From the NCBI GenBank assembly GCA_051751285.1, contig JBNJKT010000010.1, positions 20,006 through 84,005 on the forward strand: a DNA stretch of 64,000 bases. Direction: 5' to 3'. The notes beneath the pieces were generated by a model. It made no database searches and was not told the DNA's origin. It saw nothing but the letters and a program-made list of their open reading frames with translations. The position numbers were made by a program, and so were the translations under genes. Shown here one piece after another: positions 3,282 to 23,470 of the stretch (position 1 is its first letter; each line of letters starts with the position of its first letter). This DNA comes from Pseudomonadota bacterium. GTDB taxonomy: Bacteria > Pseudomonadota > Gammaproteobacteria > Pseudomonadales > Halomonadaceae.

Positions 3282-4013
3282 TTATTCCTCGTCCACTTCC
3301 TCGGCGGCATCCTGGTGCGAGAGCCGCATGCCGGTCGGTGGTAGGGCAACGCCGTCGATGGTGGCGCTGTCGCCCTTGAGCTGCAGGCGCCCCTCCAGGA
3401 ACCAGCGCACGGCGATTGGGTAGATAAGGTGCTCCCGGGCCTGCACTTTCGCCTGGAGGCTGTCTTCCGTGTCGTCCTCGGTGACGGCCACCTCGGCCTG
3501 CAGAGCGACGGGCCCACCATCCAGTTCCTCGGTGACGAAGTGCACACTGCAGCCATGCAGGGCTACCCCATCGGCCAGGGCGCGGGCATGGGTATGCAGT
3601 CCGGGATAGTCCGGCAGCAACGACGGGTGGATGTTGAGCATGCGCCCCAGGAAACGGTTGACGAAGCGCGGCGTGAGAATGCGCATGAAGCCGGCCAGCA
3701 CGATCAGATCGGGTTCGTGCCGCTCGATGACCTTGATCAGGGCGCCATCGTAGGCGTCGCGGCTGTCGTACTCGCGATGCGGCAGGGCCACGGCATCGAT
3801 GCTCGCGTCCCGGGCACGCTTGAGTCCGTAGGCATCCGCTTGATTGGAGATCACCGCGACGATCTCGCCGCCCAGGGCGTCATGACGCTGGGCGTCGATC
3901 AGCGCCTGCAGGTTGCTGCCGCTGCCGGAGATCAGCACCACCACCCGGCGCGTCTCGCTGGGCTCGGGAGTGAAGGCGTTCAGGGTGTCGCTCTGATAGT
4001 CGGTGACGCTCAT
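3282..4013 (-). CDS. purN: phosphoribosylglycinamide formyltransferase
   Basis: VVVLISGSGSNLQALIDA and NIHPSLLP motifs; 243 aa. Confidence 0.93.
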   Translation of the reverse strand: MSVTDYQSDTLNAFTPEPSETRRVVVLISGSGSNLQALIDAQRHDALGGEIVAVISNQADAYGLKRARDASIDAVALPHREYDSRDAYDGALIKVIERHEPDLIVLAGFMRILTPRFVNRFLGRMLNIHPSLLPDYPGLHTHARALADGVALHGCSVHFVTEELDGGPVALQAEVAVTEDDTEDSLQAKVQAREHLIYPIAVRWFLEGRLQLKGDSATIDGVALPPTGMRLSHQDAAEEVDEE

Positions 4014-4079
4014 CAGATTTGCGCGGGATACCCGGTACTTTTAGTGCCGGGAGGGATAGCGCGTCGCCCGCAGGGCGAC

Positions 4080-5450
4080 CTATGGCACCGCTCGTCCCGC
4101 TCCTCCTTTTACGTGGGTGGATGGTGTCTGATGATAGCCGTAGCCATCACCGCGTTGAATCAGGATGCAGTGGCGGTATGAGATACCCTGCACGGCCCCT
4201 TCGGGGGTCTGGATGTTGAAACTGCCCGTCTTGCGCACGGCTACACGGCCCGTATGCGTACCGGCCTTCTTGCCGGTGGGCACGATGGCTCGCACCATGT
4301 CGCCGGTCTGGAATCCCTTTACCTGCTTCTGGCGCGTCAGGTAGCCACGCGGAAAGCCGTGCCGGGTGAGACGGGTGCGCTGGTAGCTGCCACGCCCCAT
4401 GGCCTTGATGATCAGCGCGGGGCGACTTGCATCGTAGAGCCGGTCGAACGGGCCGACGCAGGCGGCATCCAGGGCATGGGTTTTCGGGAGGTCAAGTCGC
4501 TGGCGGTTGTACTTGGTCAGGCCGCCGCTACCCACGCTGACAGGCAATTCAGTCGCCTTAAGTGCCTGGAACAGTGCCCAGCGCGTGGTGTTGACGGCGG
4601 TGGCATCGCGTAGCGGCTGCTTGAGCTGGCGCTGTATGCGTTCCCGCCGGGCCTCCGCCGCCAGGCCATTGGCCTTGAGGCGCTTCTTGAGTCCGCTGTC
4701 CTGGCGGAAGAAGGCGTCCAGTGAGTTGTTGTCCTTGGCCTGGTTGCAGGTGTGGCAACTTAGCGTCAGGTTGCTGATGCAGTTCGAGCCACCACGCGAG
4801 CGCGGCAGTACATGCTCCACTTCCAGCGGCGTGTCCTTGTCGCCGCAGTAGGCACACTCGCGGCCCCATTTCGCCAGCAGGTACTCGCGGACCTCGTAGC
4901 CCAGAAGCGTGCCTTGCTGGTATTCGACGTCGGAGATGTCGGGATTGTCGAGCTTCTGGGTATCAAAGCGCACCAGCTCCTGGCTGACGGCGGTGATCGG
5001 CGTCAGGCGGGTCAGCCGGTTGACCCAGGCCAGGACGGTATCGATGCGGTGTTGGAGGCTTGGCGCCAGCCAGCCGTCGCGTCGCGTGCGATTGTCGAAG
5101 CGCGGCGCCCGGTAGCGCAGGTTCTGGCTGCGCCGCCGGCGGCGAAACGCCCGGCGCTGATCCAGCGCCTGGCGGATCTGGAGGCCGCGATGCATCAGCT
5201 CGAACAGGCACAGGATATGGCGCTGGCCATCGTCGCTTTCGCGCATCAGTGCCAGCCCGGTGGTGCGACTGCCGGGATCGAGGCCCAGGCGCAGTGGCTG
5301 TCTCTCGCCACCCGCCCGATGCTTGAGCCGGATCGTGAACGGGTAGCGGCGATGCACCACCGCACGGCCTCGCTGAAGCAGCAGCCTTGCGCGCTTTTCG
5401 CTGCAAGGCATCAACGGCTGCTTCTGTTTGTCCAGTACGAAAACCGCCAT
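4080..5450 (-). CDS. iscB: IscB-type RNA-guided nuclease (RRXRR/HNH/split RuvC)
   Basis: Domain order read from the translation: PLMP (KQKQPLMPC), RuvC-I (LGLDPGSRTTGLAL) and an Arg-rich bridge helix (RRAFRRRRRSQNLRYRAPRFDNR). Then RuvC-II (VSQELVRFD), HNH (CAYCG..EVEHVLPRSRGG..NLTLSCHTCNQAKDN) and RuvC-III (KTHALDAACVG). The C-terminus has a TID-like segment (GFQTGDMVRAIV..GRVAVRKTGSFNI). The ATG at 5450 lies 7 nt after a GGAG Shine-Dalgarno sequence. Confidence 0.88.
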   Translation of the reverse strand: MAVFVLDKQKQPLMPCSEKRARLLLQRGRAVVHRRYPFTIRLKHRAGGERQPLRLGLDPGSRTTGLALMRESDDGQRHILCLFELMHRGLQIRQALDQRRAFRRRRRSQNLRYRAPRFDNRTRRDGWLAPSLQHRIDTVLAWVNRLTRLTPITAVSQELVRFDTQKLDNPDISDVEYQQGTLLGYEVREYLLAKWGRECAYCGDKDTPLEVEHVLPRSRGGSNCISNLTLSCHTCNQAKDNNSLDAFFRQDSGLKKRLKANGLAAEARRERIQRQLKQPLRDATAVNTTRWALFQALKATELPVSVGSGGLTKYNRQRLDLPKTHALDAACVGPFDRLYDASRPALIIKAMGRGSYQRTRLTRHGFPRGYLTRQKQVKGFQTGDMVRAIVPTGKKAGTHTGRVAVRKTGSFNIQTPEGAVQGISYRHCILIQRGDGYGYHQTPSTHVKGGAGRAVP

Positions 5451-5733
5451 GGCGATCTCCTTCGTGTTAGCGCCCTTACGGGCCTGGTGACGCGGATCGT
5501 TCGATCCGTCTCCCCTCGGGAATGTCGGCAACCGGCTCCTGCGTTTGTGCAGCGATCAGAACCTTCGGCGTTTTACCTTGCGCCCGAGGCGGCATACCGC
5601 AGCATGATCCTGACCTTCCAGTGCCCACCGCTGAGGAAGCACGGTGGGGTGGGTCTTGGCGACCTGTTGCCAACTTAGCGGGCAAATGCCGCTCTCCCTG
5701 GTCAACCCAGCTTGCTTTAACAAGCTCCCGCCT
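5451..5733 (-). ncRNA. candidate omegaRNA (guide + scaffold) of the IscB element
   Basis: Non-coding, directly 5' of iscB on the same strand and dense in hairpins on the minus strand. Examples: CCCACCG-N11-CGGTGGG, GACGGATCG-AA-CGATCCGCGTC, GCCC-GTAA-GGGC (GNRA loop), AGCTTG-TTAAAG-CAAGCT and AGCGG-N7-CCGCT. Position and size match known IscB omegaRNAs. Confidence 0.5.
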
Positions 5734-6822
5734 TCAGGTGGGGGTAGTTGACGCCTTGAGGTTCTCCAGCTGGACCTGCTCATCGGCATTGCCCCGTGCG
5801 GTGATTTCACCGATGCGGTGAACCGTCTCGCCGAGGGCTTGCAGATGGGCACGGGCTTGATCGGCCTTTTCCGCCGGGACGACGATGACCATACCGATGC
5901 CGCAGTTGAGTACGCGGTGCATCTCCCTCTCATCGACGTTGCCCCGCGTCTGGAGCCAGTCGAACACCGCCGGGCGCGTCCAGCTGGACGTATCGATGCG
6001 CGCCGCCAGAGTCTCGGGTAGTACACGGGGGAGGTTCTCGAGCAGGCCGCCCCCGGTGATGTGCGAGAGAGCATGCACCGGGATGTCGGTCTCCTTGAGC
6101 AACGACAGCAGCGGCTTGACGTAAATTCGCGTGGGCGCGAGCAGGGCCTCGCCGAGCGACCGGCCGTCGATGGCGGTATCCAGCGCCGACTCGCTGACCT
6201 CAAGGATCTTGCGGATCAGCGAGTAGCCGTTAGAGTGGGGGCCGGAGGATGCCATGCCCAGCAGTACGTCACCCTCGCCGACCTGCTTGCCGTCGAGGAT
6301 CTTCGATTTTTCCACCACGCCAACGCAGAAGCCGGCGAGGTCATAGTCGCTGCCCTCGTACATGCCAGGCATCTCGGCCGTCTCGCCGCCCACCAGGGCG
6401 CAGCCGGCCCGCTCGCAGCCCTCACCGATACCGGTCACCACATCGGCGGCGATATCCACGTCCAGCTTGCCCGTGGCATAGTAGTCAAGGAAGAACAGTG
6501 GTTCCGCCCCGGCCACCACCAGATCGTTGACGCACATGGCCACCAGGTCGATGCCGATGGTGTCATGGCGGCCCAGGTCCATGGCCAGGCGCAGCTTGGT
6601 GCCGACGCCGTCGGTGCCGGAGACCAGCACGGGCTCCCGGTAGCCGGCCGGCAGTTCGCACAGCGCGCCGAAACCGCCCAGCCCGCCCATGACCTCGGGG
6701 CGGGATGTGCGTTTGGCGACGCCCTTGATGCGATCGACCAGGGCATTGCCGGCATCGATGTCGACGCCGGCATCCTTGTAACTGAGCGACGCCCCGCTAG
6801 GGCGATGGGTGGAATCGGTCAT
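5734..6822 (-). CDS. purM: phosphoribosylformylglycinamidine cyclo-ligase (AIR synthetase)
   Basis: [22 protein letters not shown]..., 362 aa. Confidence 0.95.
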
Positions 6823-23292: not shown

Positions 23293-23369
23293 AGGACCAT
23301 AGCTCAGTTGGTTAGAGCGCCACGTTGACATCGTGGAGGTCGGCGGTTCAAATCCGCCTGGTCCTACCA
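23293..23369 (+). tRNA. tRNA-Val (anticodon GAC)
   Basis: Manual cloverleaf: AGGACCA/TGGTCCT acceptor, GCTC/GAGC D stem, CCACG/CGTGG anticodon stem with loop TTGACAT, GGCGG/CCGCC T stem with TTCAAAT, and encoded CCA. Confidence 0.93.
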
Positions 23370-23393: not shown

Positions 23394-23470
23394 AGGACCA
23401 TAGCTCAGTTGGTTAGAGCGCCACGTTGACATCGTGGAGGTCGGCGGTTCAAATCCGCCTGGTCCTACCA
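23394..23470 (+). tRNA. tRNA-Val (anticodon GAC), identical second copy
   Basis: Identical 77-nt sequence, 24 nt after the first copy. Confidence 0.93.

Follow-up and report, generated by a model that had tools for sequence, protein, structure and literature searches.

The original description of the HEARO RNA is said to be that of Weinberg in 2009, a work reportedly to be named together with those of Altae-Tran in 2021 and Meers in 2023 for HEARO as the omegaRNA of IscB. HEARO is the IscB omegaRNA (Meers 2023; review PMC13565253), and its Rfam model, RF02033, does not comprise the downstream omegaRNA elements (Meers 2023). The RNA is bounded by a transposon end, its guide lies outside the element, and TnpA and IscB share one TAM, which in the case of GstIscB is TTCAT, i.e., ATGAA on the iscB strand (Meers 2023). 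With an external guide, transcription has to read in from a co-oriented upstream gene, and about 1.5% of iscB genes are found near tnpA (Meers 2023). The ISC2 elements of Halomonas meridiana and Marinobacter ELB17 insert at N↓ATGA (the arrow marking the junction) and exhibit a 5'-GT terminus and subterminal hairpins (Kapitonov 2016, PMC4810608).

In the window, namely the whole stretch of 64,000 nucleotides that was analysed, the sequence upstream of iscB, rich in hairpins, constitutes the omegaRNA gene of a small IscB transposon, and the omegaRNA is an ordinary, unremarkable member of a well-described class. The features of the locus are the following:

5753-5768, minus strand: predicted omegaRNA guide of about 16 nt, UGGAGAACCUCAAGGC, made of host purM 3' coding sequence directly outside the transposon end
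5504-5752, minus strand: Rfam-modelled part of the omegaRNA scaffold, with guide-adaptor hairpins, central and nexus stems and an AGGGA/UUCCC pseudoknot-type pairing
5734-5752, minus strand: first 19 nt of the scaffold, read as the new PurM C-terminus (A)STTPT plus stop, from PurM length and empty-site alignment
5585-5600, minus strand: 16-nt lineage-specific insert in a variable loop of the scaffold, a GCGG-UAUG-CCGC hairpin
5472-5503, minus strand: 3' extension of the omegaRNA outside the Rfam model, with the hairpins GACGGAUCG/CGAUCCGCGUC and GCCC-GUAA-GGGC
5457-5462, minus strand: iscB Shine-Dalgarno sequence AAGGAG, read from the sequence, at a position conserved in the alignment
4080-5450, minus strand: iscB, RNA-guided endonuclease of 456 aa, from Pfam RRXRR (241.7 bits) and HNH and from its catalytic residues
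4014-4079, minus strand: TAM-proximal end of the element ("LE" in the IS200/IS605 convention), conserved in 36 loci
4010-4013, minus strand: ATGA target site/TAM, outside the element, its ATG being the start codon of purN

A covariance-model search, which the preliminary description of this DNA had called for, gives a HEARO (RF02033) match at 5504-5752 of the minus strand, which scores 100.7 bits where the gathering threshold is 83 (cmscan, E = 1.6e-19) and spans the full model (positions 1-211). The match is on the iscB strand, the 3' end of the scaffold lies about 22 nt 5' of the iscB ATG (5450), and the whole constant scaffold can be placed at about 5752-5472, i.e., about 281 nt. The interval 5451-5733 had been proposed as a candidate omegaRNA, and this proposal is borne out by the HEARO score, by the adjoining ORF with RRXRR and HNH domains and by covariation in 38 loci. 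The location of the RNA stands, as does the end of the interval at the iscB Shine-Dalgarno sequence (5462-5457), 6 nt 5' of the ATG; the 5' limit has to be corrected, with the scaffold running 19 nt further, to 5752, into the purM ORF. HEARO is the single non-tRNA match over threshold in an Rfam scan of the whole 64-kb window, where it occurs as a single copy. Weak matches to pRNA, mgtE and IRES_Bip between 3900 and 6000 remain below threshold and were put down to chance. Two tandem tRNA-Val(GAC) genes with equal Rfam scores can be found at 23293-23369 and 23394-23470 of the plus strand, 24 nt apart.

The six helices named in the preliminary description are all present on the minus strand, namely AGCTTG 5726/CAAGCT 5714, CCCACCG 5648/CGGTGGG 5630, GGCG 5584/CGCC 5570, CTGC 5552/GCAG 5542, GACGGATCG 5510/CGATCCGCGTC 5499 and GCCC 5483-GTAA-GGGC 5475. 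The minimum free energy of 5451-5780 in this GC-rich sequence is close to that of shuffled sequences (z = -1.57; 6/100 shuffles as low), so that hairpin density alone is no proof and was not used as evidence either way; more-than-chance structure is instead indicated by the covariance-model match and by covariation. Sixty-three related iscB loci were fetched; 40 were scanned for HEARO, and 38 were aligned over the region between the first base of the scaffold and the iscB ATG. HEARO can be found at the same position in all 40 scanned loci, with 84.7-157 bits. RNAalifold on the 38 loci yields 66 pairs, 43 of which keep pairing with changes on both sides, as where CCCACCG/CGGUGGG is replaced by CGCCGAA/UUCGGCG or CAGUGGA/UCCGCUG. 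A conserved covarying structure, on whose presence in homologous loci the proposal had been made to depend, is accordingly found in 38 of them. The two iscB-proximal hairpins outside the Rfam model (5510-5489 and 5483-5472) are kept in 38/38 loci, each pair of the former showing 9-20 double compensatory changes and the latter, with its GUAA loop, being nearly invariant. The 16-nt insert at 5600-5585 is present, among the 38 aligned loci, only in the window and in L005, a Halomonas MAG whose IscB is 80% and whose scaffold is 88% identical; it folds alone, in a loop whose length varies across the family.

The same alignment bears on the idea that the interval codes for protein, either as an N-terminal extension of IscB from TTG 5531 or as a 69-aa ORF at 5476-5685. 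Both are contained in the ORF listing, and this 69-aa TTG ORF and the TTG-started 5' extension of iscB are the only ORFs of the interval on that strand. Yet substitutions track base-pairing without codon periodicity, indels are not multiples of three, and the ATG with its Shine-Dalgarno sequence and the MAVFVLDK N-terminus is conserved in all relatives, in every one of which this N-terminus begins at the ATG corresponding to 5450. Coding by the interval is therefore given next to no credence, and the two TTG ORFs were rejected, as the earlier statement that the interval holds no credible ORF had anticipated.

The protein downstream displays the complete residue set of a split RuvC with an inserted HNH. 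Aligned to the motifs of OgeuIscB and TbaIscB, it keeps D58, E158, H213, N236, H325 and D328; the N-terminal KQPLMPC agrees with a PLMP/RRXRR N-terminus, and the protein resembles the IscB structures solved in the PDB. Its homologues number in the thousands, the nearest (78-83% identical) being from Halomonas and Vreelandella and annotated as "RNA-guided endonuclease IscB". About 110 residues at the C-terminus, where a TAM-interacting domain would be expected, are likewise conserved in the close homologues. When the window IscB was looked up by exact protein match, no other contig was returned, and the ends of the element were therefore defined from relatives and empty sites instead of same-genome copies.

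In 41 copies, similarity begins exactly at GTCAAC (GTCAAT in 3), while the preceding 30-40 nt show no relationship between copies. At the other end, 36 loci are conserved up to a final ...G, which is followed by an invariant ATGA. From this shared start and the shared end ...G↓ATGA, the element can be delimited as 4014-5752. The ATGA adjoins 36/36 elements, with A as fifth base in 25/36, and it is also present at the empty sites L064, L066 and L067. Empty sites read ...GGAGAACCTCAAGG[G/C/A]↓ATGAGCG and the occupied site ...GGAGAACCTCAAGGC[GTCAAC...AAATCTG]ATGAGCG; the comparison of AAGGC↓ATGAGCG (empty) with AAGGC[GTCAAC...CTG]ATGAGCG (occupied) leaves no target-site duplication. Insertion at a specific target of 4-5 bp and the lack of terminal inverted repeats are both features of ISC2 and IS200/IS605 transposons, and the present element displays them as well. 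The TAM-proximal end comprises hairpin A (4063-4079), the linker GCGCTATCCCT, hairpin B (4031-4051), which is subterminal and of the TnpA type, and a tail of 17 nt whose last base is G, a layout that agrees with the published one (Kapitonov 2016, PMC4810608); the Marinobacter sp. ELB17 copy is among the loci compared here (L018). Imperfect subterminal hairpins of the kind bound by a Y1 transposase are present at both ends, CCCGGCAC-UAAAA-GUACCGGG at 17 nt from the TAM end and CCCCCACC-UGAA-GGCGGG at 9 nt from the opposite one; in relatives both subterminal hairpins can be found with a CUGAAG loop.

The only gene of the element is iscB. A tblastn search of the 64-kb window for TnpA (Y1) with approximate queries, which is a weak test, returned noise only and no obvious candidate; mobility would thus depend on a transposase encoded elsewhere, if any. 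With about 1.5% of iscB genes near tnpA, such a non-autonomous state is normal and the missing TnpA is no argument against ISC2 membership. By its sequence, the segment 4014-5752 of the minus strand (1739 bp) is a non-autonomous ISC2-type IS200/IS605 insertion composed of an omegaRNA, IscB and a hairpin end.

The empty sites also settle how the structured sequence relates to the host operon. Lying as it does between two purine-biosynthesis genes, a structured non-coding sequence might be taken for a cis-regulatory leader or attenuator of the purM-purN operon, controlling purN for instance. In H. lysinitropha, H. sp. 11-S5 and H. daqiaonensis, however, whose PurM proteins are 92-98% identical, purM and purN share a 4-base ATGA overlap with no spacer, which refutes a host leader, and the same RNA is found beside iscB in 40 unrelated genomic contexts; this possibility can practically be discarded. 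The preliminary description had envisaged that the region might be kept as a purM-purN spacer in genomes lacking iscB, and these overlapping genes indicate that it is not. PurM is 357 aa long in the three relatives and 362 aa here, its tail changing from ...LKG-stop to ...LKASTTPT-stop, so that G357 is replaced by ASTTPT. Columns 17-19 of the alignment, in the loop of the first scaffold hairpin, read U[G/A]A without exception, and in the frame of the ATGA overlap this triplet ends an upstream ORF six codons into the element, the PurM stop being an example. It was further observed that the insertion removed the translational coupling between purM and purN, and the purN ATG now follows ...GCAAATCTG, with no nearby Shine-Dalgarno sequence. 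Between 3200 and 7100 on this strand, a promoter-like site is present only upstream of purM, and purM, the omegaRNA, iscB and purN are not separated by any terminator-like site. As regards annotation, the "purM-purN intergenic region" is a mobile element, the PurM tail is element-encoded and the coupling of purN to purM is lost.

With the scaffold starting at 5752, the guide (about 5768-5753) falls inside the purM coding sequence. Its length of about 16-17 nt is taken by analogy with OgeuIscB (Kato 2022), and its exact 5' end is an estimate on that basis. A guide near the purM stop had been anticipated; it does adjoin the stop, although it lies within purM coding sequence and the stop codon itself (5736-5734) is supplied by the scaffold. 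In the occupied allele, the sequence after the guide match is GTCAA, not ATGAA. Perfect 16-nt matches followed by ATGAG can be found in the empty allele of Halomonas sp. 11-S5 (L066) and at five metagenome purM/purN junctions (L069, L070, L071, L079 and L092). The empty site of H. lysinitropha, the nearest relative with an empty site, has a mismatch at the TAM-proximal guide base, G for C (...AAGGG↓ATGAG). In OgeuIscB a mismatch at this base abolishes cutting (Kato 2022), and by this analogy the H. lysinitropha allele would not be cut. No second occupied purM/purN allele was found in the metagenomes.

The RNA family, its covarying structure, the element boundaries, the empty site, the TAM/target motif and the intact catalytic set of IscB were established in this analysis. 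It is very probable, from these features together, that the locus represents an ISC2-type insertion 5' of the purM/purN ATGA and that the interval is an omegaRNA gene taking its guide from purM, with a mechanism proposed by homology. Transcription, processing, RNP formation, cleavage and present-day mobility are what we infer in this way. The element inserted directly 5' of the ATGA in which the purM stop and the purN start overlap. Since the guide is outside the element, transcription would read in from the purM promoter, and the transcript would be processed to an omegaRNA and bound by IscB. The RNP would then recognise DNA in which the ATGA(A) TAM comes after a match to the guide. The purM/purN junction, when empty or after excision, is such a site, the matching target being TGGAGAACCTCAAGGC followed by ATGAG. 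Cleavage by the HNH and RuvC of IscB, followed by recombination with the occupied copy, would restore or spread the element. The occupied locus would itself be immune, self-targeting being precluded because GTCAA, not ATGAA, follows the guide match there.

Whether such a cycle operates depends on the element being functional, and a dead or fossil insertion, in which an omegaRNA-like sequence and iscB persist unexpressed or inactive and nothing is guided, has to be weighed against it. The one copy in 64 kb, the lack of a further occupied allele, the absence of TnpA from the window (in a weak tblastn test), a HEARO score (100.7) below the midpoint of the span seen in relatives (84.7-157) and the lineage-specific 16-nt scaffold insert would all fit a fossil. 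They are set against an iscB ORF of full length with every catalytic residue kept, intact ends and an intact flanking TAM, and a scaffold that retains all its stems and accommodates the insert as a separate hairpin in a length-variable loop; a fossil is accordingly regarded as unlikely. Far less probable still is a domesticated RNA-guided regulator, the RNP of which would bind the purM/purN junction and control the purine genes instead of serving the transposon. While the guide does match a host operon junction, and nuclease-dead TnpB relatives, domesticated as regulators according to PMC10705468, provide a precedent there, the nuclease residues are intact here, the guide is the mere flank of a canonical insertion, the target at the occupied locus is without a TAM, and an identical architecture is found at dozens of unrelated sites. 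With an ISC2-type insertion as the preferred reading, the locus adds one more apparently intact IscB/omegaRNA pair with a native guide, an ATGAA-like TAM and natural target alleles, and these defined components make a direct homing test in Halomonas easy. The current understanding of OMEGA systems is unchanged.

The related insertions also allow the position of the ATGA relative to host genes to be considered. Of 39 such insertions, 28 have an ORF of 100 codons or more starting at the ATG of the adjoining ATGA, and in 23 of those 28 an in-frame stop is present at most 60 codons upstream, while random ATGA sites give 20-26% for the former property and 8-12% with the upstream in-frame stop; the enrichment in start codons has a binomial p of 4e-9, with the loci partly dependent. 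The downstream co-oriented gene starts at the TAM ATG in about 59-72% of insertions versus about 4-26% in the background. By crude GC3-based gene calls, about 4% of the ATGA sites in the window serve as start codons, a caller that undercalled genes (65% coding), so that the start-codon background is only approximate. All ten ORFs tested are real genes, with Pfam domains beginning at profile positions 1-5 near residue 1, and the downstream genes tested include a moaA-like gene, yicC (twice), lysine decarboxylase, an Rnf/Nqr subunit, UDP-GlcNAc 2-epimerase and ABC ATPases. Stop/start ATGA overlaps like that of purM/purN account for 7/39 insertions. Many upstream flanks have a Shine-Dalgarno sequence 9-13 nt before the junction; the insertion leaves this native sequence in the guide flank, 1.7 kb away from its ATG. 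Part of the start-codon enrichment is surely explained by purifying selection against intragenic insertions. Start codons are not discussed in Kapitonov 2016, Meers 2023, the review PMC13565253 or Goltsman 2022.

A further motif lies at the end of iscB:

4095-4107, minus strand: AGGAGG (4107-4102) and GCGGGA (4100-4095), which is the 5' arm of a long-range helix and has TCCCGC (4028-4023) as its partner

An AGGAGG-like motif 77-99 nt before the flanking ATG is present in all gammaproteobacterial and Cupriavidus loci, not in the cyanobacterial ones; in the window and 35 loci it is near the iscB stop, before the stop codon in some and after it in others. In the same set, the TAM-proximal end (4014-4107 in the window) contains the invariant linker GCGCTATCCCTCC and two hairpins. 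The helix arm UCCCGC is found 8-9 nt before the host ATG (9 nt in the case of purN). The helix covaries (GCGAGA/UCUCGC, GGGAAAC/GUUUCCC, GGGAGAC/GUCUCCC), and cognate arms pair better than permuted ones, with 39/5000 permutations reaching the observed value. As MAFFT misaligned the AGGAGG region, these values come from a manual register and a permutation test and not from a formal pair count, and single-sequence folds of the TAM-proximal end are inconsistent between loci.

It can be hypothesized, with considerable doubt, that this IscB clade is adapted to translation starts, the ATGA(A) TAM typically being a host start codon and AGGAGG with the GCGGGA/UCCCGC helix constituting a portable, structure-bridged ribosome-binding site. 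With the TAM as the start codon of a co-oriented gene, the guide would be the ribosome-binding region of that gene. The helix would enclose two hairpins and bring AGGAGG within about 10 nt of the host ATG, so that the element would offset the 1.7-kb displacement of the native Shine-Dalgarno sequence and insertions would be nearly neutral. If true, the portable site would keep purN translated after the loss of its coupling to purM, and a start-codon lifestyle would explain how elements can reside inside operons without killing downstream genes. AGGAGG and the helix could equally be part of an end recognised by the transposase or part of iscB mRNA metabolism, and AGGAGG could pair with CCUCC instead.

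Several of the related insertions deserve mention in their own right. Vreelandella rituensis (L011) and a Thiopseudomonas MAG (L013) both have an element at the start codon of yicC, with different guide flanks; from their sequences, these two insertions into the same gene in different genera appear independent. At least 17 iscB loci, many of them at contig ends, are present in Vreelandella rituensis TQ8S (L011, L012, L014, L015, L019, L021, L029, L042, L047, L049, L050, L054, L055, L057, L058, L061 and L062), which suggests a recent burst of the element family. The Oceanisphaera litoralis locus (L016) is without the ...G↓ATGA end and has the similar sequence GTGAATATAGT in both flanks, at about 2198-2211 and downstream of iscB, while that of Burkholderia anthina (L034) has no recognisable TAM-proximal end.

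Compared with RF02033, the RNA described here has in common the full-length match above the gathering score, the position and strand relative to iscB, the stems, the AGGGA/UUCCC pairing and a variable guide 5' of an invariant GUCAAC start. The 16-nt extra hairpin in the variable loop (5585-5600) is a feature of its own, whereas the two additional 3' hairpins (5472-5510), outside the model, can likewise be found in the relatives of Meers 2023. The OgeuIscB-omegaRNA RNP (PDB 7XHT/7UTN; Kato 2022, Schuler 2022) is built on the same protein family (phmmer E = 2e-29), with RuvC and HNH motifs that align, and its omegaRNA combines a guide of some 16 nt with a scaffold of several stems and a pseudoknot. 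In contrast, its sequence identity to the protein considered here is low, its reported TAM is NNRR and not ATGA(A), and its scaffold measures 206 nt versus about 281 nt.

The nearest described elements, ISC2-1_HM (Halomonas meridiana) and ISC2-1_MS (Marinobacter sp. ELB17), come from the same host group, measure about 1.7 kb and harbor iscB as their sole gene. The present element differs from them in its IscB, at most 83% identical to any database protein, and in its insertion site, the purM/purN overlap, which was not seen elsewhere in the metagenomes; the 5'-GT terminus, the insertion at N↓ATGA without target duplication and the subterminal hairpins are common to all. GstIscB and ISGst (Geobacillus stearothermophilus, Meers 2023) belong to another phylum, the protein is distant, and activity has been demonstrated for Gst whereas it is inferred here. 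Nevertheless, the TAM TTCAT 5' of the LE corresponds to the ATGAA consensus found here, and in both systems the guide lies beyond the omegaRNA-proximal end, with purM as the co-oriented upstream gene in the present case.
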